From NCBI GenBank assembly GCA_951406725.2, contig OX597822.1, positions 10,664,001-10,728,000 of the forward strand: 64,000 nucleotides of DNA, in the 5' to 3' direction. The notes under the pieces were generated by a model, which made no database searches, had not been told where the DNA came from, and worked only from the letters and a program-made list of their open reading frames with translations. Numbering within the stretch: the stretch's first letter is position 1; every line of letters starts with the position of its first letter. The position numbers and the translations under genes are program-made. This stretch comes from Octopus vulgaris. Taxonomy: Eukaryota. Below, piece after piece: positions 3,334-41,620 of this stretch.

Positions 3334-5423
3334 GAAAGAGAGAGAGAGAAAGGGGGCGTGAGTGTGCGAGTAATTGAGAAAGAGAGAAGTTGCCGGAGGG
3401 TAAGTGGTAAGAAGTGTGCTTTGTGACCACCTGTTTCAGGTTCTGTCTCACAGCGCGGCGCTTAGAAATAGTGTGTATTCTGTTTTAGCTCTGGTTAGAT
3501 CTATGTTTCCATTATTCCGCAAAACATGTCTGGTCATGAGGAACTCGGATATAGGTGAGGGACGGTTATTCGTGGGAACAACGACAACAACTGTTAATCA
3601 ACGGATAATACAACTGAGTGATGTGAATGAGGTCATAACTGAACCAACACTCTGTATCGTAACGGTGCGTTTGTGAGTCTAAAAGACATATTAACATTAT
3701 AATGCATATTCTTTTTGTCTTGCAGGGTGTAAATATGCCGCAATTGGAAATAAGACGTTTAAATACTGGTGGTGGAGGGGGTCTGGAAGTACTACTACCT
3801 GTCCAAAAAGAGTAGGGGAAACGCAAGTTGTCCTCGTCAATTGGCATTTATCTAGCTCGCTACTTCGGCCCCTGTAGCTTATCTTTTCCAGTAACGAATC
3901 ATATCCATGTCAACTGACCAACAAAATTCTTAGAAGAAATTGATTTAGACTCCGGACACCTAAAGCCAGAACCTAAGACAGCAGTGAAAATGGACATTTT
4001 GCTGGTACATAGGTTAACTCAGGTGAAAAACCATACATGTATGACATTATATAAAGAATATTTTCTCAAACTGGATGCCATATAAAAATAAAAACCTATC
4101 TTTGAACTGGCTGAATAAATCGGGTCTAAATAAAGCTGCAGAAATACCAGAATTTACCATGTTGGGATACGCCACCCCTAATTAATATATTATCAAAAAT
4201 ATGCACAATTCTACATTACAGTATAGAAAATAAAATTGCTTACGTGGATCATTTCTTGAAAGAATATACCGTATTTATATTGAAGCCAATACGAAATTCA
4301 AGAAAATATTCTTAGAGACGCAGTAATTTAGCAAAGCTGCACTACATCACCTTATCACCAAATTTCAGTTGCTTCAAGTAAAACATTGCCCAGATACTTA
4401 TATTAACTTGTGGTTGTTCCAGAAAGTAACACTGCGAAACTTTTATCTAAATTTATCTTACAAACAACCATAAAACACATAATACCCTTGTTATCAATCT
4501 TGGCGACAGAAATGACAATCGTGTACTAATTAACCAATAATTAACCAAAAGCAAAAAGCAAAATGACAACACAAGTGGCAAATAGTTTTGATAAGAAAAA
4601 TCTCATAGGATATTTGTGTGTAATCTTTTATTTGTTTCAGTCATTAGACTTCGGCCATGCTGGGGCAACCCCTTGAAGAGATTTTAATCAGACGAATCGA
4701 CTCCGTAACTTTTTTTAAACCTGGCATTTAATCTATCAGTTTATTTTGCAGAACCTCTACTTTTACGAGGAGGTAAACAAACCAGCACCGGTAGTCAAGC
4801 TGTGTGCAAAGTGGACAAACACGCGCGCGCGCGCGTACACGCATATATATGACAGGAGGCTCATTTCAGTTTCCGTCAACCAAATCTACTCACAAGGCTT
4901 TGGTCGGCCTGAGGCTATAGTAGAAGACACTTGCTGAAGGTACCACATAGTGCGATTGAACCCAGAGCCACATGGTTGAGAAGCAAGCTTCTTACCAGAC
5001 ATCCTGCGCCTATATATAATCTTTTTACTCACTAAAGTAGATTGCTTAGTTCCTCTGCTCGTTAATGACTCATTGTTGTCTTTCCTTGCTTTCAGTTAAT
5101 ATTTTAATGTCTTGGCAGCAAAGATTTTATGGCGATTTTAGGAGAAATATACTTCTAAAATCTAATAGAGTCGAGAATCCCTCATCCAAATTTTACGGGA
5201 CAGAAATTATCGCGAAATTCGGATTTTCGGATTTCAGAATAATTTGGTAGTTGCATCTATAAAATGCGCTGTCTTGGGAGACGCGTCTAATAGATGTGGA
5301 ATCGATAGGAAACCAAAGGCATTACACCGACCAAACTGCTGAACTAAGAAAATAGGCACACCACTCCACAAAAAATGCCTCGCATGGCATTTAAAGAATG
5401 TGTCAGTTGCCTTATTTATGACA

Positions 5424-7360: not shown

Positions 7361-7432
7361 TATATATATATATATATATGAAAAAACAAGTAAAAAATAG
7401 AAAATGCTAAAATAATTTTATAGTGAACATTT

Positions 7433-7470
7433 CAGTACCGGTTTCGGTCATTTTGAGACCTTTTCAACTG
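7433..7470 (-). ncRNA. Minimal type I hammerhead ribozyme, U3-A8 variant (unit 1)
   Basis: Sense strand reads CAG-UUGAAAA-GGUC-UCAAAAU-GACC-GAAA-CCGG-UA-CUG: stem I CAG/CUG, stem II GGUC/GACC, palindromic ACCGGU stem III, GUA cleavage triplet. Confidence 0.8.
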
Positions 7471-7801
7471 TAACGATTAAATAATTAAATTTAGAAAAAT
7501 TAGAAGAAAAGTTTTTTTAAAAGAATATTTCTATAGTAGTGTTCAGATTTAAGTGGCATTCTGCCTTTCTCTGACTCCCTTGTTTGCACTTGTGTGTTCG
7601 AGGTAGTTGTGAGTTCTTGGTAGGGTAGTAGAGGGAAGGCTGGTGAGGAAAGGGGGTGGGAGAATCTGGGAGTGCCCTGATGGTCGTATTTTGAATGGTC
7701 AGTGGCGGCTGGCAGTCTCAGTTCAATTCAGGATTGTTTATAGAATTAGCGTAGGTGTTATACTAAAAAACATTAGTGACAAACTTAAGGGGTAGGGGGT
7801 G

Positions 7802-8074
7802 GAGAAGAAGAAGAAGAAGAAGAAGAAGAAGAAGAAGAAGAAGAAGAAGAAGAAGAAGAAGGAGAAGGAGAAGATGATGGTGATGGTGGTGATGATTATG
7901 ACGACGATGATGATGATAACGATGATGAAGAAGAAGAAGAAGAAGAAGAAGAAGAAGAAGAAGAAGAAGAAGAAGAAGAAGAAGAAGAAGAAGAAGAAGG
8001 AGAAGGAGAAGATGGTGGTGATGATGATGACGCCGATGATGATGATAACGATGATGATGAAGAAGAAGAAGAAG
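7802..8074 (+). repeat. Compound (GAA)n/(GAT)n triplet tract in the PLE 3' UTR (present in every unit and in the solo copy)
   Basis: Directly visible. Repeat-length differences here account for most of the variation between units. Confidence 0.95.
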
Positions 8075-8208
8075 AAAAAAACAGAGAAGGGAGAATATGA
8101 ATGGGTGTAAATATAGCTATGAAGGGGCTGATTAGTAATGGATTCTATGGAGTGTAGTATTTGTGTGTGTATATATATTTTTTTCTTTTATTCTAAAGTT
8201 GAGGTATA

Positions 8209-10563
8209 TTAATTGTTTGTCGTAGACCCGTTAAGAAGTGGCTTGTATTTTGTAATAAAGAGATTTTCTTTACTTATTCTTTGTCTCGAGGTTGTATCGT
8301 CCCTAAATTGGTAGAGGGGGAAAATTCTGAAGTTTGGTGTTTTTTTGTTGGCGCAAGTATCTATGTGTTGGCTAAAAGCTATTTTTCTGTTTTGGGGAAT
8401 TTTTATCTGGGATCTGTGCAGGGCCATTCGTTTACGCAAACCATTTTTTGTTTGGCCTATGTACTGCTCTTGACACCCGGAGCAGGTTAGTGAGTATATT
8501 AGGTTCTCCGAAGCACATGTGAAGTTGCTTTTCACTGTAAACCGTTGTCCCTGTTTGAAGGAGAACTCCGAACCCTCGATTAGATAGTCGCATATCCCGC
8601 AATTGGGTCTTCCACATTTTTTTACTGTCGGCTTCTGTGTTGAAGAGTGAATTCGGGCTTGTGTAAGGAGACTTTTCATGGATCTAGGCTGTCTTTTGCT
8701 TTTTATGATCGTGTGTGTTTGGAGGATTGTGTTCATTCTGTGGTCTTTTTTTAGGAGGGGTATGTTGTGGAGGATGGTGTCGAAGGCTTCGTTATTGAGA
8801 GGGTTGTGTGTGGAGATGTATGGTAAGGCTTTTGGTTGTAAGTTTTTCTTTGATTTGGGATGTCTCAGTTCCTTGATGTTAAGTTGAAGGGCACGTTGAA
8901 TGCACTTGTCAATAAGTGAAGGTGGATAGTTCCTGGTGATTAGGGTATCTTTTAGTTCTTGTAGTCGTGTGTCTCTGGTGTTTGCGTTAGAGACTATAGT
9001 GCATATCCTTTTTGCTAGATTGAAGGGGATATTCATCCTGGTGTGTCTGGGGTGGCATGAATTGAATGGAAGATATTGCTTAGAGTCTGTAGGCTTATAG
9101 TATATGTCTGTTTCTATTATATTATTAGCTTTCTTAATGAGGATATCGAGGAAGGGGAGTTGTTGTTGGCTATATTCCATCGTGAATTGGATGTTTACGT
9201 CCAGTCCGTTTAAAATTTTCTGGAATTCTATGAGTTTTTCTATATTTTTATGCCAAAGGATGAAACAGTCATCTAGATATCTCTTCCAGTTGTTTTCTAT
9301 GTAGATGGAGAAAGGGCTGCCATATCTTTCTAGAACCTTACGATACAGACTGATCTCTAGGTATCCTATGACTAGGTTGGCAAAGGAGGGGGCCATTCGT
9401 GTACCCATCGCAGTCCCCGATTTTTGTCGGTAGAAGTTGTCATTGAAGGCGAAGAAGTTATTTTCCAGGATGAATTTAACCCCTTCTATCACAAATTCTT
9501 TTTTGATGCGGTGTGGTAGTTCGTTGGCGTGATTCTCTAGCCAGAATTGGATTGCCTCTAGTCCTAGGTTGTGGGGGATATTGGAGTAGAGGTTGACTAC
9601 ATCGAAGGATACCAGTATGGTGTTTTTGTTTATAGTATTCGGTAGGTGATTGAGCATATCTAAGTCGTCCCTTATATAGCTTTTGACATGTTTGAGGAGT
9701 GGTTTTAACAGGGTGTCTAAAAAGTTACTGAGGCGGTGGGTTTCGCATGCGGGACCTGCTATTATGGGTCTCAATTTGAGGTCATTAGGATTAGGGACTT
9801 TAATTATTTTGTCTGTAGCTATCTTGCATGCGTTGCTTATTTTTTCACTTTTGTGGATCTTAGGTATACCGTAGAATTGGCTAGTTTTACTTGTGAAATT
9901 GGTCATATAATCATATTCTTTGTCGGTGAGCCCTGCTTTGTATGGGTTTAATATGGATTTTAGTTCCCTCATTATTTTTTGTTGACTGTAGTTTTGTGCC
10001 TTTTCATAGTATCTTGTGTCTTCCAGCATAGAAAGTACCAAAGTTATGTAAAATGTCGTATCCATTAAGACAACAGCACTCCCTTTATCGGCCTCTTTGA
10101 TTGTTATTGTTTTATCTAGTTTTAATTTGTTCAACTCAGCCCATTCTTTTTTGCTGAAGTTTGGTTTGTGTTTTTGTTTGTGCATATGTTGATATGGGTA
10201 ATTTGATATGTGGTCACAGAAATCATCAAGTGTTTTATTCTTACCTTTCGAGGGGGTGTAGTTACTCCTATTTCTGGCTAACGATTCGTCCTCGTTGTAT
10301 TTATCGTATAGCTCCTCAGTAAGTCTTAATTTTCTGCAGAATTCTGCGATGTCTTCTTTCATTTCATTGTAGTTGGGGTGTTGTGGGGTGGGTGTAAACT
10401 TGAGTCCTTTGGAAAGTATGTTTATTTGGTTTGCTGTTAGTTCCTTGTGAGTTAGATTAATAATTTTTATTACTTTTGGTTCCTCCTGCTTGTTTGGTGC
10501 TATCTTGTGTCTCTGTGTTTGCGTATTGGGTCTAAAAAATGAATGCGGTGGTTGGGACGGTAG
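8209..10563 (-). CDS. PLE ORF2: reverse transcriptase + Cys linker + GIY-YIG endonuclease (Neptune-like), unit 1; frame open from 10563, first AUG at 10362
   Basis: RT motifs: ADKG, SFDVVNLYSNIP, QKSGTAMGTRMAPSFANL, RYLDD, LPFLDI, YYKPT, SCHP. Linker CGRPNCGIC. Endonuclease NLIYSLTCSGCQEQYIGQT...RMALH...QH. Manual translation upstream of the AUG gives IINLTHKELTANQINILSKGLKFTPTP with no stop until 10564-10566. Confidence 0.95.
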   Translation of the reverse strand, partial: LPSQPPHSFFRPNTQTQRHKIAPNKQEEPKVIKIINLTHKELTANQINILSKGLKFTPTPQHPNYNEMKEDIAEFCRKLRLTEELYDKYNEDESLARNRSNYTPSKGKNKTLDDFCDHISNYPYQHMHKQKHKPNFSKKEWAELNKLKLDKTITIKEADKGSAVVLMDTTFYITLVLSMLEDTRYYEKAQNYSQQKIMRELKSILNPYKAGLTDKEYDYMTNFTSKTSQFYGIPKIHKSEKISNACKIATDKIIKVPNPNDLKLRPIIAGPACETHRLSNFLDTLLKPLLKHVKSYIRDDLDMLNHLPNTINKNTILVSFDVVNLYSNIPHNLGLEAIQFWLENHANELPHRIKKEFVIEGVKFILENNFFAFNDNFYRQKSGTAMGTRMAPSFANLVIGYLEISLYRKVLERYGSPFSIYIENNWKRYLDDCFILWHKNIEKLIEFQKILNGLDVNIQFTMEYSQQQLPFLDILIKKANNIIETDIYYKPTDSKQYLPFNSCHPRHTRMNIPFNLAKRICTIVSNANTRDTRLQELKDTLITRNYPPSLIDKCIQRALQLNIKELRHPKSKKNLQPKALPYISTHNPLNNEAFDTILHNIPLLKKDHRMNTILQTHTIIKSKRQPRSMKSLLTQARIHSSTQKPTVKKCGRPNCGICDYLIEGSEFSFKQGQRFTVKSNFTCASENLIYSLTCSGCQEQYIGQTKNGLRKRMALHRSQIKIPQNRKIAFSQHIDTCANKKTPNFRIFPLYQFRDDTTSRQRISKENLFITKYKPLLNGSTTNN

Positions 10564-11735
10564 CTAGTATATAGTTGTTCTTTGTTGATTAGGGGTCTCC
10601 TGTTGTGATTTGTGGTGTGTGTTCTTGGAGCAGTATTGAGGAGAGCATCCCGATATCCCATATTCGGGTGTGGTGTTCTAGGAGGCCTTCGTTGGTAATC
10701 ATTGCAAGTGGTGTGGGTTTGTTGTGCATGGTTGTTTAACCGGTTAATGGGACGAAGATTTCGTTGGTAACTCCTTTGGGTGGGGATGAGGTTGCAGTGT
10801 CTATGCTGTGGGTGTTGATTTATCCTTTCTCTGCTTGAAGTGGGGGTATTCCTGATATTGTATCGCTGGCTGCTTACAGAGTTGGGGTTAGGTCCTGTAT
10901 TCTTTTTTTGATAGTAGTGAAGGTTCCGATTTTTAGACGGGTGTGTATCGGTGTTTGGGTGTTGTTTTGGTTTTCTTATTTTCTGGAAAGGGTTGTTGGA
11001 GGCGTGCTCTGTTTGAAAGACGGCTTCATAGTCTGAGAACCAAGTGGCGCTTTTCTCCCAGCGTTGGAGAGATTTTAGTTCTTCTTTTTCACAGTCCTCT
11101 TTCCATAGTTTGGAGAACTTCTCTTGATCTGGGCCTTGGGTCATTTTGCGAATTTCTTCGTTGATATCTTCATCGGTGGATTTTATTTTATCCTCATTCG
11201 TTTGGGCCCTCAATTTCAGAAGTTCTATTTCCATTTTCATTTTTTCCAGTGCCATTCTCTCCCTGAGGTGTCTTTGTGTTTCAGGTTCTTCTGTAATAGC
11301 TTTGAACTGGAATTTACGTGGGAGGATTAACGGGGTCCGGTTGAGCCATTTTTCGTATATATCCGCTTTGTTGTTGTTTTGGATCATCTTCCAAAAGGCG
11401 AACTTTCTATCTCTGAGTGATTTGTTCCATTGTGGTATTATGTGGTGTTTCATTTGGTATGTTGTTAGAGTATTGATCCCATATATTGACGCGTTTGGAG
11501 GTCCTTGGTTAGCGTTGTTAGAGAAAAATGTTCTAATTGTTTCGCATAAGTTTCCAAGGTTTTCGACAATTTCGGAGGTTGTATTTTTCGTATCTGTTTC
11601 TTCATTGTTCTCTCGATTGGGTTGAAGTGTCGAGTCGAATTTGTTAAAAAAAGTTGACAAATTTGTGTTGATTTTCTTGAGTTCTTTCAGTATTTCTTCG
11701 TTTATGGAGGTGATTGTGTCTGTTTTTGTCGGCAT
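10500..11735 (-). CDS. PLE ORF1: ~411-aa coiled-coil protein with basic low-complexity C-terminus (unit 1)
   Basis: Long ORF; the track starts at GTG 11786 and the first AUG is 11735. It has helical E/K-rich segments (RERMALEKMKMEIELLKLRAQTNEDKIK) and an R/N/H/P-rich tail, and is identical in unit 2. Confidence 0.85.
   Translation of the reverse strand: MPTKTDTITSINEEILKELKKINTNLSTFFNKFDSTLQPNRENNEETDTKNTTSEIVENLGNLCETIRTFFSNNANQGPPNASIYGINTLTTYQMKHHIIPQWNKSLRDRKFAFWKMIQNNNKADIYEKWLNRTPLILPRKFQFKAITEEPETQRHLRERMALEKMKMEIELLKLRAQTNEDKIKSTDEDINEEIRKMTQGPDQEKFSKLWKEDCEKEELKSLQRWEKSATWFSDYEAVFQTEHASNNPFQKIRKPKQHPNTDTHPSKNRNLHYYQKKNTGPNPNSVSSQRYNIRNTPTSSRERINQHPQHRHCNLIPTQRSYQRNLRPINRLNNHAQQTHTTCNDYQRRPPRTPHPNMGYRDALLNTAPRTHTTNHNRRPLINKEQLYTSYRPNHRIHFLDPIRKHRDTR
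10533..10539 (-). promoter_or_regulatory. Putative -1 ribosomal frameshift slippery site U_UUU_UUA (also 14966-14972 and 19386-19392)
   Basis: ORF1 codons CAU UUU UUA GAC place X_XXY_YYZ in the correct register. A -1 slip enters the RT-EN frame (R-P-N-T-Q...). Confidence 0.75.
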
Positions 11736-11855
11736 TTTCTGTATCTCGTGTGGGTTAATGATATGTATAAGGGTGAAAAGGAACACACGAGTTGATATAT
11801 ATGAAAAAACAAGTAAAAAATAGAAAATGCTAAAATAATTTTATAGTGAACATTT

Positions 11856-11893
11856 CAGTACCGGTTTCGGTCATTTTGAGACCTTTTCAACTG
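11856..11893 (-). ncRNA. Minimal hammerhead ribozyme, U3-A8 variant (unit 2)
   Basis: Identical to 7433-7470. Confidence 0.8.
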
Positions 11894-12641
11894 TAACGAT
11901 TAAATAATTAAATTTAGAAAAATTAGAAGAAAAGTTTTTTTAAAAGAATATTTCTATAGTAGTGTTCAGATTTAAGTGGCATTCTGCCTTTCTCTGACTC
12001 CCTTGTTTGCACTTGTGTGTTCGAGGTAGTTGTGAGTTCTTGGTAGGGTAGTAGAGGGAAGGCTGGTGAGGAAAGGGGGTGGGAGAATCTGGGAGTGCCC
12101 TGATGGTCGTATTTTGAATGGTCAGTGGCGGCTGGCAGTCTCAGTTCAATTCAGGATTGTTTATAGAATTAGCGTAGGTGTTATACTAAAAAACATTAGT
12201 GACAAACTTAAGGGGTAGGGGGTGGAAGAAGAAGAAGAAGAAGAAGAAGAAGAAGAAGAAGAAGAAGAAGAAGAAGAAGAAGAAGAAGGAGAAGGAGAAG
12301 ATGATGGTGATGGTGGTGATGATTATGACGACGATGATGATGATAACGATGATGAAGAAGAAGAAGAAGAAGAAGAAGAAGAAGAAGAAGAAGAAGAAGA
12401 AGAAGAAGAAGAAGAAGAAGAAGAAGAAGAAGGAGAAGGAGAAGATGGTGGTGATGATGATGACGCCGATGATGATGATAACGATGATGATGAAGAAGAA
12501 GAAGAAGAAAAAAACAGAGAAGGGAGAATATGAATGGGTGTAAATATAGCTATGAAGGGGCTGATTAGTAATGGATTCTATGGAGTGTAGTATTTGTGTG
12601 TGTATATATATTTTTTTCTTTTATTCTAAAGTTGAGGTATA

Positions 12642-14996
12642 TTAATTGTTTGTCGTAGACCCGTTAAGAAGTGGCTTGTATTTTGTAATAAAGAGATTTT
12701 CTTTACTTATTCTTTGTCTCGAGGTTGTATCGTCCCTAAATTGGTAGAGGGGGAAAATTCTGAAGTTTGGTGTTTTTTTGTTGGCGCAAGTATCTATGTG
12801 TTGGCTAAAAGCTATTTTTCTGTTTTGGGGAATTTTTATCTGGGATCTGTGCAGGGCCATTCGTTTACGCAAACCATTTTTTGTTTGGCCTATGTACTGC
12901 TCTTGACACCCGGAGCAGGTTAGTGAGTATATTAGGTTCTCCGAAGCACATGTGAAGTTGCTTTTCACTGTAAACCGTTGTCCCTGTTTGAAGGAGAACT
13001 CCGAACCCTCGATTAGATAGTCGCATATCCCGCAATTGGGTCTTCCACATTTTTTTACTGTCGGCTTCTGTGTTGAAGAGTGAATTCGGGCTTGTGTAAG
13101 GAGACTTTTCATGGATCTAGGCTGTCTTTTGCTTTTTATGATCGTGTGTGTTTGGAGGATTGTGTTCATTCTGTGGTCTTTTTTTAGGAGGGGTATGTTG
13201 TGGAGGATGGTGTCGAAGGCTTCGTTATTGAGAGGGTTGTGTGTGGAGATGTATGGTAAGGCTTTTGGTTGTAAGTTTTTCTTTGATTTGGGATGTCTCA
13301 GTTCCTTGATGTTAAGTTGAAGGGCACGTTGAATGCACTTGTCAATAAGTGAAGGTGGATAGTTCCTGGTGATTAGGGTATCTTTTAGTTCTTGTAGTCG
13401 TGTGTCTCTGGTGTTTGCGTTAGAGACTATAGTGCATATCCTTTTTGCTAGATTGAAGGGGATATTCATCCTGGTGTGTCTGGGGTGGCATGAATTGAAT
13501 GGAAGATATTGCTTAGAGTCTGTAGGCTTATAGTATATGTCTGTTTCTATTATATTATTAGCTTTCTTAATGAGGATATCGAGGAAGGGGAGTTGTTGTT
13601 GGCTATATTCCATCGTGAATTGGATGTTTACGTCCAGTCCGTTTAAAATTTTCTGGAATTCTATGAGTTTTTCTATATTTTTATGCCAAAGGATGAAACA
13701 GTCATCTAGATATCTCTTCCAGTTGTTTTCTATGTAGATGGAGAAAGGGCTGCCATATCTTTCTAGAACCTTACGATACAGACTGATCTCTAGGTATCCT
13801 ATGACTAGGTTGGCAAAGGAGGGGGCCATTCGTGTACCCATCGCAGTCCCCGATTTTTGTCGGTAGAAGTTGTCATTGAAGGCGAAGAAGTTATTTTCCA
13901 GGATGAATTTAACCCCTTCTATCACAAATTCTTTTTTGATGCGGTGTGGTAGTTCGTTGGCGTGATTCTCTAGCCAGAATTGGATTGCCTCTAGTCCTAG
14001 GTTGTGGGGGATATTGGAGTAGAGGTTGACTACATCGAAGGATACCAGTATGGTGTTTTTGTTTATAGTATTCGGTAGGTGATTGAGCATATCTAAGTCG
14101 TCCCTTATATAGCTTTTGACATGTTTGAGGAGTGGTTTTAACAGGGTGTCTAAAAAGTTACTGAGGCGGTGGGTTTCGCATGCGGGACCTGCTATTATGG
14201 GTCTCAATTTGAGGTCATTAGGATTAGGGACTTTAATTATTTTGTCTGTAGCTATCTTGCATGCGTTGCTTATTTTTTCACTTTTGTGGATCTTAGGTAT
14301 ACCGTAGAATTGGCTAGTTTTACTTGTGAAATTGGTCATATAATCATATTCTTTGTCGGTGAGCCCTGCTTTGTATGGGTTTAATATGGATTTTAGTTCC
14401 CTCATTATTTTTTGTTGACTGTAGTTTTGTGCCTTTTCATAGTATCTTGTGTCTTCCAGCATAGAAAGTACCAAAGTTATGTAAAATGTCGTATCCATTA
14501 AGACAACAGCACTCCCTTTATCGGCCTCTTTGATTGTTATTGTTTTATCTAGTTTTAATTTGTTCAACTCAGCCCATTCTTTTTTGCTGAAGTTTGGTTT
14601 GTGTTTTTGTTTGTGCATATGTTGATATGGGTAATTTGATATGTGGTCACAGAAATCATCAAGTGTTTTATTCTTACCTTTCGAGGGGGTGTAGTTACTC
14701 CTATTTCTGGCTAACGATTCGTCCTCGTTGTATTTATCGTATAGCTCCTCAGTAAGTCTTAATTTTCTGCAGAATTCTGCGATGTCTTCTTTCATTTCAT
14801 TGTAGTTGGGGTGTTGTGGGGTGGGTGTAAACTTGAGTCCTTTGGAAAGTATGTTTATTTGGTTTGCTGTTAGTTCCTTGTGAGTTAGATTAATAATTTT
14901 TATTACTTTTGGTTCCTCCTGCTTGTTTGGTGCTATCTTGTGTCTCTGTGTTTGCGTATTGGGTCTAAAAAATGAATGCGGTGGTTGGGACGGTAG
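12642..14996 (-). CDS. PLE ORF2 RT-GIY-YIG (unit 2); first AUG at 14795
   Basis: Translation identical to unit 1. Confidence 0.95.
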   Translation of the reverse strand, partial: LPSQPPHSFFRPNTQTQRHKIAPNKQEEPKVIKIINLTHKELTANQINILSKGLKFTPTPQHPNYNEMKEDIAEFCRKLRLTEELYDKYNEDESLARNRSNYTPSKGKNKTLDDFCDHISNYPYQHMHKQKHKPNFSKKEWAELNKLKLDKTITIKEADKGSAVVLMDTTFYITLVLSMLEDTRYYEKAQNYSQQKIMRELKSILNPYKAGLTDKEYDYMTNFTSKTSQFYGIPKIHKSEKISNACKIATDKIIKVPNPNDLKLRPIIAGPACETHRLSNFLDTLLKPLLKHVKSYIRDDLDMLNHLPNTINKNTILVSFDVVNLYSNIPHNLGLEAIQFWLENHANELPHRIKKEFVIEGVKFILENNFFAFNDNFYRQKSGTAMGTRMAPSFANLVIGYLEISLYRKVLERYGSPFSIYIENNWKRYLDDCFILWHKNIEKLIEFQKILNGLDVNIQFTMEYSQQQLPFLDILIKKANNIIETDIYYKPTDSKQYLPFNSCHPRHTRMNIPFNLAKRICTIVSNANTRDTRLQELKDTLITRNYPPSLIDKCIQRALQLNIKELRHPKSKKNLQPKALPYISTHNPLNNEAFDTILHNIPLLKKDHRMNTILQTHTIIKSKRQPRSMKSLLTQARIHSSTQKPTVKKCGRPNCGICDYLIEGSEFSFKQGQRFTVKSNFTCASENLIYSLTCSGCQEQYIGQTKNGLRKRMALHRSQIKIPQNRKIAFSQHIDTCANKKTPNFRIFPLYQFRDDTTSRQRISKENLFITKYKPLLNGSTTNN

Positions 14997-16168
14997 CTAG
15001 TATATAGTTGTTCTTTGTTGATTAGGGGTCTCCTGTTGTGATTTGTGGTGTGTGTTCTTGGAGCAGTATTGAGGAGAGCATCCCGATATCCCATATTCGG
15101 GTGTGGTGTTCTAGGAGGCCTTCGTTGGTAATCATTGCAAGTGGTGTGGGTTTGTTGTGCATGGTTGTTTAACCGGTTAATGGGACGAAGATTTCGTTGG
15201 TAACTCCTTTGGGTGGGGATGAGGTTGCAGTGTCTATGCTGTGGGTGTTGATTTATCCTTTCTCTGCTTGAAGTGGGGGTATTCCTGATATTGTATCGCT
15301 GGCTGCTTACAGAGTTGGGGTTAGGTCCTGTATTCTTTTTTTGATAGTAGTGAAGGTTCCGATTTTTAGACGGGTGTGTATCGGTGTTTGGGTGTTGTTT
15401 TGGTTTTCTTATTTTCTGGAAAGGGTTGTTGGAGGCGTGCTCTGTTTGAAAGACGGCTTCATAGTCTGAGAACCAAGTGGCGCTTTTCTCCCAGCGTTGG
15501 AGAGATTTTAGTTCTTCTTTTTCACAGTCCTCTTTCCATAGTTTGGAGAACTTCTCTTGATCTGGGCCTTGGGTCATTTTGCGAATTTCTTCGTTGATAT
15601 CTTCATCGGTGGATTTTATTTTATCCTCATTCGTTTGGGCCCTCAATTTCAGAAGTTCTATTTCCATTTTCATTTTTTCCAGTGCCATTCTCTCCCTGAG
15701 GTGTCTTTGTGTTTCAGGTTCTTCTGTAATAGCTTTGAACTGGAATTTACGTGGGAGGATTAACGGGGTCCGGTTGAGCCATTTTTCGTATATATCCGCT
15801 TTGTTGTTGTTTTGGATCATCTTCCAAAAGGCGAACTTTCTATCTCTGAGTGATTTGTTCCATTGTGGTATTATGTGGTGTTTCATTTGGTATGTTGTTA
15901 GAGTATTGATCCCATATATTGACGCGTTTGGAGGTCCTTGGTTAGCGTTGTTAGAGAAAAATGTTCTAATTGTTTCGCATAAGTTTCCAAGGTTTTCGAC
16001 AATTTCGGAGGTTGTATTTTTCGTATCTGTTTCTTCATTGTTCTCTCGATTGGGTTGAAGTGTCGAGTCGAATTTGTTAAAAAAAGTTGACAAATTTGTG
16101 TTGATTTTCTTGAGTTCTTTCAGTATTTCTTCGTTTATGGAGGTGATTGTGTCTGTTTTTGTCGGCAT
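14933..16168 (-). CDS. PLE ORF1 coiled-coil protein (unit 2)
   Basis: Translation identical to unit 1. Confidence 0.85.
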   Translation of the reverse strand: MPTKTDTITSINEEILKELKKINTNLSTFFNKFDSTLQPNRENNEETDTKNTTSEIVENLGNLCETIRTFFSNNANQGPPNASIYGINTLTTYQMKHHIIPQWNKSLRDRKFAFWKMIQNNNKADIYEKWLNRTPLILPRKFQFKAITEEPETQRHLRERMALEKMKMEIELLKLRAQTNEDKIKSTDEDINEEIRKMTQGPDQEKFSKLWKEDCEKEELKSLQRWEKSATWFSDYEAVFQTEHASNNPFQKIRKPKQHPNTDTHPSKNRNLHYYQKKNTGPNPNSVSSQRYNIRNTPTSSRERINQHPQHRHCNLIPTQRSYQRNLRPINRLNNHAQQTHTTCNDYQRRPPRTPHPNMGYRDALLNTAPRTHTTNHNRRPLINKEQLYTSYRPNHRIHFLDPIRKHRDTR

Positions 16169-16288
16169 TTTCTGTATCTCGTGTGGGTTAATGATATGTA
16201 TAAGGGTGAAAAGGAACACACGAGTTGATATATATGAAAAAACAAGTAAAAAATAGAAAATGCTAAAATAATTTTATAGTGAACATTT

Positions 16289-16326
16289 CAGTACCGGTTT
16301 CGGTCATTTTGAGACCTTTTCAACTG
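16289..16326 (-). ncRNA. Minimal hammerhead ribozyme, U3-A8 variant (unit 3)
   Basis: Identical to 7433-7470. Confidence 0.8.
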
Positions 16327-17062
16327 TAACGATTAAATAATTAAATTTAGAAAAATTAGAAGAAAAGTTTTTTTAAAAGAATATTTCTATAGTAGTGTTC
16401 AGATTTAAGTGGCATTCTGCCTTTCTCTGACTCCCTTGTTTGCACTTGTGTGTTCGAGGTAGTTGTGAGTTCTTGGTAGGGTAGTAGAGGGAAGGCTGGT
16501 GAGGAAAGGGGGTGGGAGAATCTGGGAGTGCCCTGATGGTCGTATTTTGAATGGTCAGTGGCGGCTGGCAGTCTCAGTTCAATTCAGGATTGTTTATAGA
16601 ATTAGCGTAGGTGTTATACTAAAAAACATTAGTGACAAACTTAAGGGGTAGGGGGTGGAGAAGAAGAAGAAGAAGAAGAAGAAGAAGAAGAAGAAGAAGA
16701 AGAAGAAGGAGAAGGAGAAGATGATGGTGATGGTGGTGATGATTATGACGACGATGATGATGATAACGATGATGAAGAAGAAGAAGAAGAAGAAGAAGAA
16801 GAAGAAGAAGAAGAAGAAGAAGAAGAAGAAGAAGAAGAAGAAGAAGAAGAAGATGGTGGTGATGATGGTGGTGATGATGATGACGCCGATGATGATGATA
16901 ACGATGATGATGAAGAAGAAGAAGAAGAAAAAAACAGAGAAGGGAGAATATGAATGGGTGTAAATATAGCTATGAAGGGGCTGATTAGTAATGGATTCTA
17001 TGGAGTGTAGTATTTGTGTGTGTATATATATTTTTTTCTTTTTATTCTAAAGTTGAGGTATA

Positions 17063-20000
17063 TTAATTGTTTGTCGTAGACCCGTTAAGAAGTGGCTTGT
17101 ATTTTGTAATAAAGAGATTTTCTTTACTTATTCTTTGTCTCGAGGTTGTATCGTCCCTAAATTGGTAGAGGGGGAAAATTCTGAAGTTTGGTGTTTTTTT
17201 GTTGGCGCAAGTATCTATGTGTTGGCTAAAAGCTATTTTTCTGTTTTGGGGAATTTTTATCTGGGATCTGTGCAGGGCCATTCGTTTACGCAAACCATTT
17301 TTTGTTTGGCCTATGTACTGCTCTTGACACCCGGAGCAGGTTAGTGAGTATATTAGGTTCTCCGAAGCACATGTGAAGTTGCTTTTCACTGTAAACCGTT
17401 GTCCCTGTTTGAAGGAGAACTCCGAACCCTCGATTAGATAGTCGCATATCCCGCAATTGGGTCTTCCACATTTTTTTACTGTCGGCTTCTGTGTTGAAGA
17501 GTGAATTCGGGCTTGTGTAAGGAGACTTTTCATGGATCTAGGCTGTCTTTTGCTTTTTATGATCGTGTGTGTTTGGAGGATTGTGTTCATTCTGTGGTCT
17601 TTTTTTAGGAGGGGTATGTTGTGGAGGATGGTGTCGAAGGCTTCGTTATTGAGAGGGTTGTGTGTGGAGATGTATGGTAAGGCTTTTGGTTGTAAGTTTT
17701 TCTTTGATTTGGGATGTCTCAGTTCCTTGATGTTAAGTTGAAGGGCACGTTGAATGCACTTGTCAATAAGTGAAGGTGGATAGTTCCTGGTGATTAGGGT
17801 ATCTTTTAGTTCTTGTAGTCGTGTGTCTCTGGTGTTTGCGTTAGAGACTATAGTGCATATCCTTTTTGCTAGATTGAAGGGGATATTCATCCTGGTGTGT
17901 CTGGGGTGGCATGAATTGAATGGAAGATATTGCTTAGAGTCTGTAGGCTTATAGTATATGTCTGTTTCTATTATATTATTAGCTTTCTTAATGAGGATAT
18001 CGAGGAAGGGGAGTTGTTGTTGGCTATATTCCATCGTGAATTGGATGTTTACGTCCAGTCCGTTTAAAATTTTCTGGAATTCTATGAGTTTTTCTATATT
18101 TTTATGCCAAAGGATGAAACAGTCATCTAGATATCTCTTCCAGTTGTTTTCTATGTAGATGGAGAAAGGGCTGCCATATCTTTCTAGAACCTTACGATAC
18201 AGACTGATCTCTAGGTATCCTATGACTAGGTTGGCAAAGGAGGGGGCCATTCGTGTACCCATCGCAGTCCCCGATTTTTGTCGGTAGAAGTTGTCATTGA
18301 AGGCGAAGAAGTTATTTTCCAGGATGAATTTAACCCCTTCTATCACAAATTCTTTTTTGATGCGGTGTGGTAGTTCGTTGGCGTGATTCTCTAGCCAGAA
18401 TTGGATTGCCTCTAGTCCTAGGTTGTGGGGGATATTGGAGTAGAGGTTGACTACATCGAAGGATACCAGTATGGTGTTTTTGTTTATAGTATTCGGTAGG
18501 TGATTGAGCATATCTAAGTCGTCCCTTATATAGCTTTTGACATGTTTGAGGAGTGGTTTTAACAGGGTGTCTAAAAAGTTACTGAGGCGGTGGGTTTCGC
18601 ATGCGGGACCTGCTATTATGGGTCTCAATTTGAGGTCATTAGGATTAGGGACTTTAATTATTTTGTCTGTAGCTATCTTGCATGCGTTGCTTATTTTTTC
18701 ACTTTTGTGGATCTTAGGTATACCGTAGAATTGGCTAGTTTTACTTGTGAAATTGGTCATATAATCATATTCTTTGTCGGTGAGCCCTGCTTTGTATGGG
18801 TTTAATATGGATTTTAGTTCCCTCATTATTTTTTGTTGACTGTAGTTTTGTGCCTTTTCATAGTATCTTGTGTCTTCCAGCATAGAAAGTACCAAAGTTA
18901 TGTAAAATGTCGTATCCATTAAGACAACAGCACTCCCTTTATCGGCCTCTTTGATTGTTATTGTTTTATCTAGTTTTAATTTGTTCAACTCAGCCCATTC
19001 TTTTTTGCTGAAGTTTGGTTTGTGTTTTTGTTTGTGCATATGTTGATATGGGTAATTTGATATGTGGTCACAGAAATCATCAAGTGTTTTATTCTTACCT
19101 TTCGAGGGGTGTAGTTACTCCTATTTCTGGCTAACGATTCGTCCTCGTTGTATTTATCGTATAGCTCCTCAGTAAGTCTTAATTTTCTGCAGAATTCTGC
19201 GATGTCTTCTTTCATTTCATTGTAGTTGGGGTGTTGTGGGGTGGGTGTAAACTTGAGTCCTTTGGAAAGTATGTTTATTTGGTTTGCTGTTAGTTCCTTG
19301 TGAGTTAGATTAATAATTTTTATTACTTTTGGTTCCTCCTGCTTGTTTGGTGCTATCTTGTGTCTCTGTGTTTGCGTATTGGGTCTAAAAAATGAATGCG
19401 GTGGTTGGGACGGTAGCTAGTATATAGTTGTTCTTTGTTGATTAGGGGTCTCCTGTTGTGATTTGTGGTGTGTGTTCTTGGAGCAGTATTGAGGAGAGCA
19501 TCCCGATATCCCATATTCGGGTGTGGTGTTCTAGGAGGCCTTCGTTGGTAATCATTGCAAGTGGTGTGGGTTTGTTGTGCATGGTTGTTTAACCGGTTAA
19601 TGGGACGAAGATTTCGTTGGTAACTCCTTTGGGTGGGGATGAGGTTGCAGTGTCTATGCTGTGGGTGTTGATTTATCCTTTCTCTGCTTGAAGTGGGGGT
19701 ATTCCTGATATTGTATCGCTGGCTGCTTACAGAGTTGGGGTTAGGTCCTGTATTCTTTTTTTGATAGTAGTGAAGGTTCCGATTTTTAGACGGGTGTGTA
19801 TCGGTGTTTGGGTGTTGTTTTGGTTTTCTTATTTTCTGGAAAGGGTTGTTGGAGGCGTGCTCTGTTTGAAAGACGGCTTCATAGTCTGAGAACCAAGTGG
19901 CGCTTTTCTCCCAGCGTTGGAGAGATTTTAGTTCTTCTTTTTCACAGTCCTCTTTCCATAGTTTGGAGAACTTCTCTTGATCTGGGCCTTGGGTCATTTT

Positions 20001-20587
20001 GCGAATTTCTTCGTTGATATCTTCATCGGTGGATTTTATTTTATCCTCATTCGTTTGGGCCCTCAATTTCAGAAGTTCTATTTCCATTTTCATTTTTTCC
20101 AGTGCCATTCTCTCCCTGAGGTGTCTTTGTGTTTCAGGTTCTTCTGTAATAGCTTTGAACTGGAATTTACGTGGGAGGATTAACGGGGTCCGGTTGAGCC
20201 ATTTTTCGTATATATCCGCTTTGTTGTTGTTTTGGATCATCTTCCAAAAGGCGAACTTTCTATCTCTGAGTGATTTGTTCCATTGTGGTATTATGTGGTG
20301 TTTCATTTGGTATGTTGTTAGAGTATTGATCCCATATATTGACGCGTTTGGAGGTCCTTGGTTAGCGTTGTTAGAGAAAAATGTTCTAATTGTTTCGCAT
20401 AAGTTTCCAAGGTTTTCGACAATTTCGGAGGTTGTATTTTTCGTATCTGTTTCTTCATTGTTCTCTCGATTGGGTTGAAGTGTCGAGTCGAATTTGTTAA
20501 AAAAGTTGACAAATTTGTGTTGATTTTCTTGAGTTCTTTCAGTATTTCTTCGTTTATGGAGGTGATTGTGTCTGTTTTTGTCGGCAT
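17063..20587 (-). pseudogene. PLE ORF1/ORF2 of unit 3, each broken by a 1-bp homopolymer deletion
   Basis: G5 to G4 near 19106-19109 splits ORF2, and A7 to A6 near 20499-20504 splits ORF1. The unit otherwise matches the others, so these could be consensus errors. Confidence 0.7.
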
Positions 20588-20707
20588 TTTCTGTATCTCG
20601 TGTGGGTTAATGATATGTATAAGGGTGAAAAGGAACACACGAGTTGATATATATGAAAAAACAAGTAAAAAATAGAAAATGCTAAAATAATTTTATAGTG
20701 AACATTT

Positions 20708-20745
20708 CAGTACCGGTTTCGGTCATTTTGAGACCTTTTCAACTG
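20708..20745 (-). ncRNA. Minimal hammerhead ribozyme, U3-A8 variant (truncated unit 4)
   Basis: Identical to 7433-7470. Confidence 0.8.
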
Positions 20746-21486
20746 TAACGATTAAATAATTAAATTTAGAAAAATTAGAAGAAAAGTTTTTTTAAAAGAA
20801 TATTTCTATAGTAGTGTTCAGATTTAAGTGGCATTCTGCCTTTCTCTGACTCCCTTGTTTGCACTTGTGTGTTCGAGGTAGTTGTGAGTTCTTGGTAGGG
20901 TAGTAGAGGGAAGGCTGGTGAGGAAAGGGGGTGGGAGAATCTGGGAGTGCCCTGATGGTCGTATTTTGAATGGTCAGTGGCGGCTGGCAGTCTCAGTTCA
21001 ATTCAGGATTGTTTATAGAATTAGCGTAGGTGTTATACTAAAAAACATTAGTGACAAACTTAAGGGGTAGGGGGTGGAGAAGAAGAAGAAGAAGAAGAAG
21101 AAGAAGAAGAAGAAGAAGAAGAAGAAGGAGAAGGAGAAGATGATGGTGATGGTGGTGATGATTATGACGACGATGATGATGATAACGATGATGAAGAAGA
21201 AGAAGAAGAAGAAGAAGAAGAAGAAGAAGAAGAAGAAGAAGAAGAAGAAGAAGAAGAAGAAGAAGAAGAAGAAGGAGAAGGAGATGATGGTGGTGATGAT
21301 GATGACGCCGATGATGATGATAAAGATGATGATGAAGAAGAAGAAGAAGAAGAAAAAAACAGAGAAGGGAGAATATGAATGGGTGTAAATATAGCTATGA
21401 AGGGGCTGATTAGTAATGGATTCTATGGAGTGTAGTATTTGTGTGTGTATATATATTTTTTTCTTTTATTCTAAAGTTGAGGTATA

Positions 21487-21981
21487 TTAATTGTTTGTCG
21501 TAGACCCGTTAAGAAGTGGCTTGTATTTTGTAATAAAGAGATTTTCTTTACTTATTCTTTGTCTCGAGGTTGTATCGTCCCTAAATTGGTAGAGGGGGAA
21601 AATTCTGAAGTTTGGTGTTTTTTTGTTGGCGCAAGTATCTATGTGTTGGCTAAAAGCTATTTTTCTGTTTTGGGGAATTTTTATCTGGGATCTGTGCAGG
21701 GCCATTCGTTTACGCAAACCATTTTTTGTTTGGCCTATGTACTGCTCTTGACACCCGGAGCAGGTTAGTGAGTATATTAGGTTCTCCGAAGCACATGTGA
21801 AGTTGCTTTTCACTGTAAACCGTTGTCCCTGTTTGAAGGAGAACTCCGAACCCTCGATTAGATAGTCGCATATCCCGCAATTGGGTCTTCCACATTTTTT
21901 TACTGTCGGCTTCTGTGTTGAAGAGTGAATTCGGGCTTGTGTAAGGAGACTTTTCATGGATCTAGGCTGTCTTTTGCTTTT

Positions 21982-21984
<3 letters not shown>
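21487..21984 (-). pseudogene. 5'-truncated ORF2 fragment (Cys linker + GIY-YIG only) in unit 4
   Basis: 156-aa ORF identical to the ORF2 C-terminus; identity ends at TTTTAT, running into (TA)n. Confidence 0.9.
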
Positions 21985-25605: not shown

Positions 25606-26480
25606 ATTAAGGTAGGTGTGTGTGTGTGTGTGAGAGAGAGAGAGTTGTTGATAATAGTATGTGTAACTTGCTCTTTGATAATTTGTGGCAATTAGAACAT
25701 CAACGAGATGCTGCGTCATATTGTGAACCAAAAATGTAACACCAAAATTATTGTCTGTTATCCGAAGCCTATAAGAATTCTTTTTGCTGTATCTCTTGCT
25801 TCTCAATGACACGGTCCTTAATGATATACTTGGCAATAGATAGTTGTGACTATTTTCGTTTAAGAGTAATTAACATCTTTCGTTGCAAGAATGCGCCATT
25901 GGATTGCAGAGACGAGGAAAGTCATGATGACCACACAAGGAACAAGGATCTCCCCTTACATTAAAGAACAATGTTTCGAAGGTGGGAACTGATTTGCGTA
26001 CCATGACAGAGTTCCGTGCGATGACAGAGCAGCTGAAACTGATATCAAATGCAGAATTAGAAATATCAGACAGGAGTTTTTCAGCGATTTTTCCAAAATC
26101 TGGTCTACTGGACAGCAACATTAAGATCTGCCGCTAAAAAAACATTGAACAACCACTGGCTCTTCATACAAGAACAATCTGGAAGAAAATGGCAAAAATT
26201 TACCAAAAATTTGGATTTCTTTTACCAAATCCAGAGAATTCTTACCACGATCATGTCAGAAGAAAGAATTTTTCAGAAAATCATCATTGGGAAGGTTCCA
26301 AGGATTACAGATTAGTTCACCGCCATCAGTTTTTCTGCTGGGAAAAAGTTCAGCGCGAACAAAGGTCAGTTAGGAATGTTCACCGCGAGGAAAGTTTACT
26401 GAGAAAATACGTCCATAGTACCTTACCGATAATAGTTAAAATACTATTTTATTGAAAATCAACAACAACAACAAAAAAAC

Positions 26481-26660
26481 GGTGAATTGATGACAGTAAA
26501 CTTTCCTTGCTATGAATTGATGACGGTGAATTTTCCCTACGATTAATTGATGTCGGTGAACTTTTTCTGCAGTGAATTGATGACGATGAACTTTCCCTAC
26601 CGTGAATTGATAACGGTGAACTTTCCATGCGGTGAACTGATGACGGTGAACTTTCCAGAC
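26481..26660 (+). repeat. Minisatellite, 6 x 30 bp (consensus GGTGAATTGATGACGGTGAACTTTCCCTNC)
   Basis: Directly visible 30-bp period. Inverted sub-motifs (AGTTCACCG) occur at 26310-26400. Confidence 0.85.
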
Positions 26661-36996: not shown

Positions 36997-37017
36997 ATAC
37001 GCCTTCACTATATCTAC

Positions 37018-37930: not shown

Positions 37931-39096
37931 TATATATATATATATATATATTGCCATTCGAAAAAAAAAAACACCAACAGACTGTCCTTATATTGAATAT
38001 TGAGAATCCCACTGTTATTGGATATATGCGATATCAAAGCAATGCATACTGGTGGGATATTCCATTCAAAATATCTGTCAAGTGTAAGTATAGCAAGTGG
38101 GATATTGCTGTCTGGAAATGAATTTGGAATCTCTGATAGAGGAAAAGGTAAATGAAACATCCACTGATGTACGACTGAATAAAATTCTGGTATATACTAT
38201 TGTATATTGAATTAAAATAGCCATCTATGCATCATACTTAACGATCACTCTATTGTATATATATATGTGTGTGTGTGTGTAAAATACAGACACATATATG
38301 CATACATACAATACACACTTATACATACATAGATCTTTCTCGTACAATATAAACATAAAAGCCTGGATATTGTAGTTTGGGACCGCAATAGAGGTCAACT
38401 GTACTATATTGGTTAATATCTACGATTTTCAAAGAGAAAGCAGAATAACTATGGACATACTTCGAAACCTCCAGCTTTTGTATCCAGTTAATAAATTCAC
38501 ATGTATATCACTAATAATTCGTGCTCTTGGTTTGGTGAGAATATGCTTAAGTGACAATCTCGATAAGTTAGGGTATTCAAAACTAACAAGCACAATACAA
38601 ATGCAACCTGTAAGTGGAACAGTAAAAATATACAAAACTTTTCTAAAGTTTAAAACTAAAATTTACTTTCGTTATCTACATTCGAAATATTTAGAAGAAA
38701 CTAATTTATAATACGGGTGCATGTTTGAGAGAGTGTCTATATCTTAATTTGTCAAGTAATTGATATATTCACCAGCTTAAATTTTCGTGTTTCATCCCAG
38801 CGTCATTTAAGCGAGAAGAAATTAATACAGCATTTCTCTGACTATCACAATAGCCTTATTGAGTTCTTTATAAATCTTTTAATCATGGAATATTTCTTTT
38901 ACATGAGAGTTAAATTTGTATTTATATATAGTGTATATGCGTGTGTGCCTATGTGTTTGCGTATGCGTGTGTGAGTGCGCGTGCGTATACACACATACAT
39001 ATACATACATACACACACATATGTATATATCACAAAAAGTTATTAATAAGGGCTTAGCAATATGAGCAATATATATATATATATATATATGATTAT

Positions 39097-40794
39097 ATGA
39101 CCAATTTCACAAGTAAAACTAGCCAATTCTACGGTATACCTAAGATCCACAAAAGTGAGAAAATAAGTAACGCATGCAAGATAGCTACAGACAAAATAAG
39201 TAAAGTCCCTAATCCTAATGACCTCAAATTGAGACCCATAATAGCAGGTCCCGCATGCGAAACCCACCGCCTCAGTAACTTTTTAGACACCCTGTTAAAA
39301 CCACTCCTCAAACATGTCAAAAGCTATATAAGGGACGACTTAGATATGCTCAATCACCTACCGAATACTATAAACAAAAACACCATACTGGTATCCTTCG
39401 ATGTAGTCAACCTCTACTCCAATATCCCCCACAACCTAGGACTAGAGGCAATCCAATTCTGGCTAGAGAATCACGCCAACGAACTACCACACCGCATCAA
39501 AAAAGAATTTGTGATAGAAGGGGTTAAATTCATCCTGGAAAATAACTTCTTCGCCTTCAATGACAACTTCTACCGACAAAAATCGGGGACTGCGATGGGT
39601 ACACGAATGGCCCCCTCCTTTGCCAACCTAGTCATAGGATACCTAGAGATCAGTCTGTATCGTAAGGTTCTAGAAAGATATGGCAGCCCTTTCTCCATCT
39701 ACATAGAAAACAACTGGAAGAGATATCTAGATGACTGTTTCATCCTTTGGCATAAAAATATAGAAAAACTCATAGAATTCCAGAAAATTTTAAACGGACT
39801 GGACGTAAATATCCAATTCACGATGGAATATAGCCAACAACAACTCCCCTTCCTCGATATCCTCATTAAGAAAGCTAATAATATAATAGAAACAGACATA
39901 TACTATAAGCCTACAGACTCTAAGCAATATCTTCCATTCAATTCATGCCACCCCAGACACACCAGGATGAATATCCCCTTCAATCTAGCAAAAAGGATAT
40001 GCACTATAGTCTCTAACGCAAACACCAGAGACACACGACTACAAGAACTAAAAGATACCCTTATCACCAGGAACTATCCACCTTCACTTATTGACAAGTG
40101 CATTCAACGTGCCCTTCAACTTAACATCAAGGAACTGAGACATCCCAAATCAAAGAAAAACTTACAACCAAAAGCCTTACCATACATCTCCACACACAAC
40201 CCTCTCAATAACGAAGCCTTCGACACCATCCTCCACAACATACCCCTCCTAAAAAAAGACCACAGAATGAACACAATCCTCCAAACACACACGATCATAA
40301 AAAGCAAAAGACAGCCTAGATCCATGAAAAGTCTCCTAACACAAGCCCGAATTCACTCTTCAACACAGAAGCCGACAGTAAAAAAATGTGGAAGACCCAA
40401 TTGCGGGATATGCGACTATCTAATTGAGGGATCAGAGTTCTCCTTCAAACAGGGACAACGGTTTACAGTGAAAAGCAACTTCACATGTGCTTCGGAGAAC
40501 CTAATATACTCACTAACCTGCTCCGGGTGTCAAGAGCAGTACATAGGCCAAACAAAAAATGGTTTGCGTAAACGAATGGCCCTGCACAGATCCCAGATAA
40601 AAATTCCCCAAAACAGAAAAATAGCTTTTAGCCAACACATAGATACTTGCGCCAACAAAAAAACACCAAACTTCAGAATTTTCCCCCTCTACCAATTTAG
40701 GGACGATACAACCTCGAGACAACGAATAAGTAAAGAAAATCTCTTTATTACAAAATACAAGCCACTTCTTAACGGGTCTACGACAAACAATTAA
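39097..40794 (+). pseudogene. 5'-truncated RT-GIY-YIG ORF (565 aa, open)
   Basis: Identical to the array ORF2 except DKIIKV to DKISKV. Lacks the N-terminus, including ADKG, and lacks ORF1. Confidence 0.9.
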
Positions 40795-41442
40795 TATACC
40801 TCAACTTTAGAATAAAAGAAATATATACACACACAAATATTACACTCCATAGAATCCATTACTAATCAGCCCCATCACAGCTATACTTACACCCATTCAT
40901 ATTCTCCCTTCTCTGTTTTTTTCTTCTTCTTCTTTCTTCTTCTTCATCATCATCATTATCATCATCATCGTCGTCATCATCATCACCACCATCATCACCA
41001 CCATCTCCTCCTTCTCCTTCTTCTTCTTCTTCTTCTTCTTCTTCTTCTTCTTCTTCTTCATCATCATCATCATCAACATCGTCATCTTCTTCTTCTTCTA
41101 CTTCTCCACCTTCCACCCCTTAACCTTGTCACTAATGTCTTTCAGTATAACGCCTACGCAAATTCCATAAACAATTCCTGAATTGAACTGCGACTACTGT
41201 CAGCCACTGACCATTCAAAATACGACCATTAAGGCATTCCCAGATTTCCCCACCCCTCTCCACATCAGCCTCCTTATTCTTCACCTATCCTACCAAGAAC
41301 TCAAAACGACCTCGAACACACAAGTGCAAACAAGGGAGTCAGAGAAAGGCAGAATGCTACTTATATCTGAACACTACTACAGAAATATTCTTTTAAAAAA
41401 ACTTTTCTTCTAATTTTTCTAAATTTAATTATTTAATCGTTA

Positions 41443-41480
41443 CAGTTGAAAAGGTCTCAAAATGACCGAAACCGGTACTG
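41443..41480 (+). ncRNA. Minimal hammerhead ribozyme, U3-A8 variant (solo copy)
   Basis: CAGTTGAAAAGGTCTCAAAATGACCGAAACCGGTACTG is unchanged although the surrounding UTR has diverged. Confidence 0.8.
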
Positions 41481-41529
41481 AAAGATTCACTATAAAACCA
41501 TCTTAGCATTTTCTATTTTTGACTTGTTT

Positions 41530-41620
<91 letters not shown>

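Follow-up and report, generated by a model that had tools for sequence, protein, structure and literature searches.

Target-matching AT motifs at two 3'-end sites of a Penelope-like retroelement in octopus (TA)n tracts

Copies of a retroelement of Octopus vulgaris end on their 3' side at either of two sites, here called motif A and motif B. Both sites resemble the (TA)n target, both are joined to it in register, and of 34 insertions made of two head-to-head arms, 33 pair an A end with a B end. The reading that we favour, with some reserve, is that a protein sets the two start sites and that short pairing of the AT motifs with cut (TA)n assists priming. The element was followed from a window of 64,000 nucleotides (contig OX597822.1, positions 10,664,001 to 10,728,000, forward strand) to the whole genome (2.8 Gb), to a second octopus family and to relatives from other collections.

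The element and its copies in the window

Judged by its motif and domain marks, the element is a Penelope-like retroelement (PLE) of the Neptune/Nematis type, with an RT plus a GIY-YIG domain that is C-terminal; the marks found are those given for such PLEs in the available text of PMC8557442. Its copies and coding regions are the following.

7380..21984, minus strand: tandem array of three full units and a 5'-truncated fourth, with an A-type 3' end at 7380 and a 5' join at 21982-21984
39087..41533, plus strand: solo 5'-truncated copy, 92% identical, with an A-type 3' end and a 5' join
10500..11735, minus strand: ORF1, 411 aa from ATG
8209..10563, minus strand: ORF2, 784 aa from stop to stop, with RT, linker and GIY-YIG

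According to the sequence-only reading, long (TA)n follows the 3' end both at 7380 and at 41533. Pure alternating runs were confirmed at the two ends, of 19 and 82 nt, respectively, although the former is just moderately long. The TA overlaps that it placed at the two 5' truncations, TAT at 21982-21984 and ATAT at 39087-39090, were both recovered.

ORF2 matches the profiles RVT_1 (E = 3.5e-8) and GIY-YIG (E = 3.8e-4, 21.1 bits, slightly below the cut-off of 22.6). It carries GLKF at residue 53, DKG at 159 and YLDD at 429, so that an RT with DKG and GxKF is followed by GIY-YIG, and the latter contains CCHH (two Cys within residues 688-703, then His716 and His733). The linker CX4CxxC at residue 650, present in both octopus families, fits the CX2-5CxxC of Neptune/Nematis. 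Partial tandems, inverted arms and a tail (34 nt here, 30-40 bp expected) are further traits shared with EN+ PLEs. A Naiad/Chlamys assignment, which implies an N-terminal EN, was rejected, the EN lying at residues 688-775 of 784, as was the Hydra clade, characterised by DKT and no CCHH, given that DKG and CCHH are both there. A PDB search gave no match, and no Pfam family match was found for ORF1.

The two ORFs overlap by 64 nt, with a slippery TTTTTTA (window 10533-10539, minus strand), and the corresponding overlap in the second family also holds a T-run ending in A; a -1 frameshift is likely. Units 1 and 2 are intact, and the third has shortened ORF frames of 683 and 417 aa (window 17063-19114 and 19353-20606). 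The 3' UTR of each unit contains a (CTT)n/(CAT)n tract of variable length (window 7803-8060). Elsewhere in the window are a two-copy tandem of 465 bp at 99% identity (36064-36997) and a 30-bp repeat in six copies (26480-26656).

Motif A lies inside the element

The first end site is present three times in the array, its letters having been read exactly in each case.

11795..11802, minus strand: motif A, (AT)4 = ATATATAT, an element-internal 3'-end site and putative RT start
16228..16235, minus strand: second copy of motif A
20647..20654, minus strand: third copy of motif A
11840..11904, minus strand, also 7417-7481: minimal hammerhead-like motif upstream of motif A, with a U3-A8 core read by eye

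All three junctions read, in sense order, GTTTTTTC - ATATATAT - CAACTCGTG, exactly where the sequence-only reading had located ATATATAT. The hammerhead-like motif, a candidate for the hammerhead expected in the pLTR of EN+ PLEs, has a weak match to Rfam HH9 (19.7 bits, E = 0.3, under the gathering score of 52).

We counted exact patterns over the whole genome. The spacer before CAACTCGTG is exactly (AT)4 in 882 of 895 pattern-matched junctions, longer in 12 (eight of them (AT)5) and shorter in one, the three spacer patterns differing by two 5' letters. A copy of the (TA)n target is accordingly borne by the element at a fixed length, as had been claimed, and the spacer is not of variable length. 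The 28-nt anchor at the 3' end occurs 1416 times, with a base other than A next in eight; with an anchor 2 nt shorter, at least nine alternating bases come next in 806 cases genome-wide. The loci of the first 100 anchor matches listed on contig C1 were taken as a detailed sample (73 loci, 101 anchor matches). In it, 97 of 99 terminal 3' ends continue as 10 nt or more of alternating sequence, whereas runs of this kind account for only 4-5% of flank bases. Copies flanked by non-TA sequence are therefore far from being the majority.

The further claim that (AT)4 is a linker between units did not hold. Junctions that read through into element sequence number only 43 in the genome, so few (AT)4 junctions are tandem joints. 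We examined 40 of them, from 39 regions and with the window's own three excluded: in 39 the motif is preceded by upstream element sequence, the length of which varies greatly, and one (L338) starts at motif A. None of the 40 starts at CAACTC, that is, directly after motif A. Since the upstream part can have any length and no copy starts after the motif, motif A is internal to a continuous, circularly permuted sequence. Clustered 5' ends had suggested that transcription starts at a fixed point, about 230 nt upstream of motif A, but these upstream parts of any length led us to drop the idea. The cluster itself is a hot spot of 5' ends and inversions at unit positions 4185-4220 (about 7590-7620 of the window), holding 17 of 66 pair ends and 5 of 41 solo ends.

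A long (AT)n forms the motif-A spacer in older relatives of about 70% identity (L094:3540-3800 and L132:1880-2200), and the element may thus seed new microsatellites. Readable ends were not found in the older families at L154-L162, L167 and L178.

A second end site and its pairing with the first

The sequence-only reading had noticed neither motif B, nor the tail, nor the strict combination of the two end types in inverted insertions.

11761..11794, minus strand: 34-nt PLE 'tail' between the two end sites
11761..11769, minus strand, also 16194-16202 and 20613-20621: motif B, TATAcATAT, 8 of 9 positions alternating, second 3'-end site

Motif B lies 33 nt downstream of motif A and marks the distal end of the known PLE tail. 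At (AT)4 junctions that do not read through, the element continues for about 34 nt past (AT)4, stops at motif B and gives way to genomic (TA)n. The 101 anchor matches of the sample comprise 60 A ends, 39 B ends and 2 that read into a further unit, the B type thus making up about 40% of terminal 3' ends (39/99). Loose TA ends at window position 11761 are likewise seen in contigs from runs of two other organisms (B and C). A contig that covers the motif region came from a run whose RNA origin was a guess, and was not counted as evidence of transcription.

The two end types are not combined at random. Of the 34 head-to-head inverted insertions, 33 combine A with B, one is B+B and none is A+A (p = 2e-9 versus independent choice). 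The non-inverted copies have 32 A and 7 B ends, and an inverted A arm, 8-10 nt long, is concealed in two of the seven that end at B. Inner endpoints lie within 15 nt of each other in 10 of 33 pairs, versus 2.1 by permutation, and a few pairs have perfectly palindromic centres. When the two arms of a pair were compared with each other and with all other copies, the partner was the closest in only 5 of 23 pairs, tied in 9 and was farther in 9. Arm identity does not separate one RNA copied twice from two RNAs of the same source, fold-back synthesis or later gene conversion. A short (TA)n stands between the two inner ends of one inverted pair (L098:7252-7269), and at L130:3139-3198 a short TA stretch separates an inverted insertion from another one's tail end, as in a nested or adjacent insertion.

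A second family, relatives and a predicted hairpin

A protein search revealed a second young and abundant PLE family in the same genome, with intact tandems (G000 C1:27841632-27850548; L184-L203). Its unit measures 4271 bp, with an ORF1 frame of 454 aa and an ORF2 of 775 aa, respectively 27% and 48% identical to those of the window element; DNA similarity is confined to the RT core, and the tail is unrelated. Its end sites are nevertheless also AT motifs, (AT)3 at the A site and (AT)7 at the B site, 32 nt apart. Some B ends sit in the next alternating register beyond an interrupting C (L184, L193, L199). Both ends of inverted pairs were visible in 9 of 11 chosen regions, and all nine are A+B. 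No hammerhead was found in this family by pattern.

Relatives were sought in metagenome and genome collections, where we examined the 19 of 87 loci that reach the C-terminal region. A looser hammerhead pattern was found in 13 of the 19, the six without a match being excluded. In the 200 nt that follow the hammerhead-like motif, these 13 hold 14 AT runs versus 3.9 in dinucleotide shuffles, a number that falls to 11 once three insertion ends are removed, and 4 of the 13 show no AT run of at least 6 nt there. With the strict pattern, present in 4 of the 19, the runs are 3 versus 0.9 expected (p = 0.06). PLE-type RT-GIY-YIG genes also occur on short contigs of bacterial genome bins (L294-L300), and a symbiont label is attached to some database entries for such proteins; the genes in bacterial bins are probably host contamination.

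The window element, the second family and relatives have a layout in common, in which motif A is followed by a predicted hairpin with motif B in its loop and then by the start of ORF1.

11745..11791, minus strand: hairpin of 8 bp from folding prediction, with motif B in the 31-nt loop and motif A at the 5' foot

Over eight elements, the stems read between motif A and the ATG of ORF1 total 51 bp, versus a mean of 28.7 and a maximum of 40 after shuffling, with anchors that were chosen after looking and one ATG (L294) that opens just 15 codons before its contig ends. Five of the eight stems are individually significant and three are not. The fold of the whole region is unremarkable, and single hairpins are weak (in the seven whose stems were read, fold z runs from -0.1 to -2.7; in L214 it is +1.1). 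The relative L216 has a degenerate motif B (TGTAT) that nonetheless forms the end of one copy.

The motifs might be neutral relics, pieces of (TA)n target captured when the source tandem formed and copied along ever since. Captured target would always have been available, as the elements reside in (TA)n, and the long (AT)n spacer of the older copies L094 and L132 fits such an origin. However, capture would be required at both sites, in both families and in relatives, no read-through copy starts directly after a motif, and the length has been kept at 8 nt in 882 of 895 junctions. We therefore regard the relic explanation as improbable.

Match of the end sites to the target

Motif A matches (TA)n at 8 of 8 nt and motif B at 8 of 9, and apart from these two the 4.4-kb unit has one further site with at least 8 of 9 positions alternating. 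B ends join (TA)n in register in 744 cases, versus 13 junctions with a doubled A ('AA'), of which about seven are truly out of register and six are substitutions. The C of motif B is replaced by the T of the target in 18 of 100 B ends among the matches listed. Such replacement is expected if the primer paired across the mismatch, but may in part be later mutation or a subfamily allele, as 8 of the 18 come from an older variant. At A ends, the TA run is interrupted within its first 8 nt in 3 of 73 cases and within the next 8 nt in 12 of 70 (p = 0.014), a difference that nuclease preference could also cause.

A perfect AT stretch in the 3' UTR served as a negative control.

8170..8178, minus strand: internal (AT)4A, unused as an end

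Among the 100 matches listed, of 224 in total, the element continues past this stretch in 99; the remaining match is internal to a copy with a B end. Homology by itself is insufficient for the choice of an end. Pairing therefore cannot choose the site and is at most an aid, and something else picks the sites, most likely a protein bound near the hairpin.

This control also speaks for an explanation without any pairing, in which protein alone fixes the starts, endonuclease alone fixes target and phase, and the AT motifs are kept for some other reason, for instance because the nuclease uses them as a self-target in building tandems, or because they bind protein or act as a promoter. A fixed nick phase with fixed start bases would yield identical in-register junctions. 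Starts without target homology are reported for the element PAc in the available text of PMC11167929, and a TATA-like motif in a rotifer pLTR has been interpreted as a promoter (PMC3846280). The degenerate motif B of L216 and the insertion in the tail end of another at L130 point the same way. What this explanation leaves unaccounted for is the coincidence of motifs with both end sites in two families whose tails are unrelated, and the shift of second-family ends to the next register past an interrupting C (L184, L193, L199). Its self-target version also sits poorly with just 43 read-through junctions versus 744 B ends in genomic TA. We judge it rather unlikely, and prefer a protein that sets the sites with pairing as an aid.

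5' ends and flanking TA runs

The claim that (TA)n stands at every insertion end is borne out on the 3' side (97/99) but not on the 5' side, where 25 of 41 non-inverted ends are joined directly to (TA)n (27 had been flagged, and two false calls were removed). At these 25 joins the overlap with (TA)n averages 1.68 nt versus 0.82 expected (p = 0.0006); it reaches at least 3 nt in seven and is absent in six. The proposed role of TA microhomology in 5' joining is thus retained as a modest bias. A bias of a similar kind is known from the 5' joins of LINEs. Microhomology at the 5' join is mentioned for a rotifer PLE too (PMC3846280).

Left and right TA runs at insertions together have a median of 56-59 nt, above a length-weighted background of 27-42 nt. 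Telomerase-like reiterative copying of (AU)4, making the flanking (TA)n de novo, would produce such an excess, and PLE RTs are described as sister to telomerase in the available text of PMC8557442. However, runs on the 3' side do not exceed those on the 5' side in length (medians of 28 and 20 nt, n = 23, p = 0.53), which argues against telomerase-like addition, no sign of which was seen in this comparison. Many insertions, moreover, lie in the TA tails of other repeats and in interrupted microsatellites. The excess is accounted for by duplication of the target, which is unreadable inside (TA)n, or by a preference for long tracts, and we consider de novo synthesis of the flanks very improbable.

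A proposed mechanism

Assisted priming at protein-set sites could proceed as follows. The protein would bind multimeric (or circular) RNA at the hairpin below the hammerhead-like motif, by which both start sites would be fixed. GIY-YIG would cut both strands of (TA)n, and since this sequence is self-complementary both 3' ends would then offer the same sequence. The two cut ends would anneal to different motifs, one to A and one to B, with 4-9 bp of pairing as an aid. Extension of both ends would give a head-to-head insertion with the tail on one arm, probably with one RNA copied twice, which would account both for the strictness of the A+B rule and for inner endpoints that match. Extension of one end would give a solo copy, whose 5' end would be joined with 0-4 nt of TA microhomology.

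A wider proposal, which we put forward tentatively and as somewhat less probable than its alternative, is that (TA)n-targeting PLEs share a conserved RNA priming module. It would consist of a hairpin just upstream of ORF1 with two target-complementary AU patches about 33 nt apart, at the foot and in the loop, each capturing one strand of the double cut, like a telomerase alignment region used twice. If true, such a module would explain the PLE tail, the inverted ends and the microsatellite targeting in one step, and retargeting might work by altering two short RNA motifs.

Comparison with known systems

Much of this behaviour is already published: as far as the available texts show, the (TA)n bias, the tail, the inverted arms, the two starts and the cutting of both strands have all been described, as has the annealing of target-like motifs in SART1Bm and R1Bm (PMC7265360). 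In the papers searched we found no prior description of target-matching motifs at both starts or of the hairpin layout, although Arkhipova 2006, the 2007 paper of Gladyshev and Arkhipova or the supplements of PMC11167929 may mention such motifs; junction motifs were likewise not found in the available portions of PMC12602865, PMC13282606, PMC4209133 and bioRxiv 10.64898/2026.07.22.740005.

The closest known elements are the Neptune/Nematis-type EN+ PLEs (Craig et al. 2021, PMC8557442). According to the available text, they share with the octopus element an RT with C-terminal GIY-YIG, CX2-5CxxC, CCHH, partial tandems, an inverted 5'-truncated arm, a one-ended tail of 30-40 bp and a microsatellite bias; the tail is there ascribed to EN-mediated resolution and the bias is linked to the linker. 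That account, as available, differs from ours in the target-like motifs at the ends of the tail, the rule of one tailed and one untailed arm, and the predicted hairpin. It names PLE priming, the one-sided tail and the microsatellite preference as open questions.

The only PLE studied in vitro is Poseidon PAc of the anole (Frangieh et al. 2024, PMC11167929). The available text reports two internal starts that are non-homologous to the cut DNA, a preference for ATT, a stem-loop at the starts, cutting and extension of both strands, and a predicted dimer. PAc thus shares with the octopus element two sites bounding the tail, which are here the genomic ends. In contrast, both octopus sites match (TA)n and lie just upstream of ORF1, whereas the PAc sites are inside the ORF. 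Hundreds of natural junctions in two families, with both end sites on target-matching motifs and near-strict use of one of each, contrast with what is available of the sole in vitro study.

For SART1Bm and R1Bm it has been proposed that internal RT starts are set by short RNA motifs resembling the target, which anneal to the nicked repeat (PMC7265360). These are non-LTR elements with another endonuclease, and the available description gives them one start region, without a tail or an obligate two-ended layout. The EN- PLEs Athena and Coprina have RNA with short target-complementary repeats near hammerheads and attach to telomere overhangs, according to the available text of PMC8557442. As in Athena, the RNA of the octopus element would carry target-complementary repeats, motifs A and B, at its points of attachment. 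Unlike Athena, as described there, it has GIY-YIG and inserts inside chromosomes, along which its copies are spread. This connects EN+ PLEs with the pairing principle that has been described in Athena elements and in telomerase.
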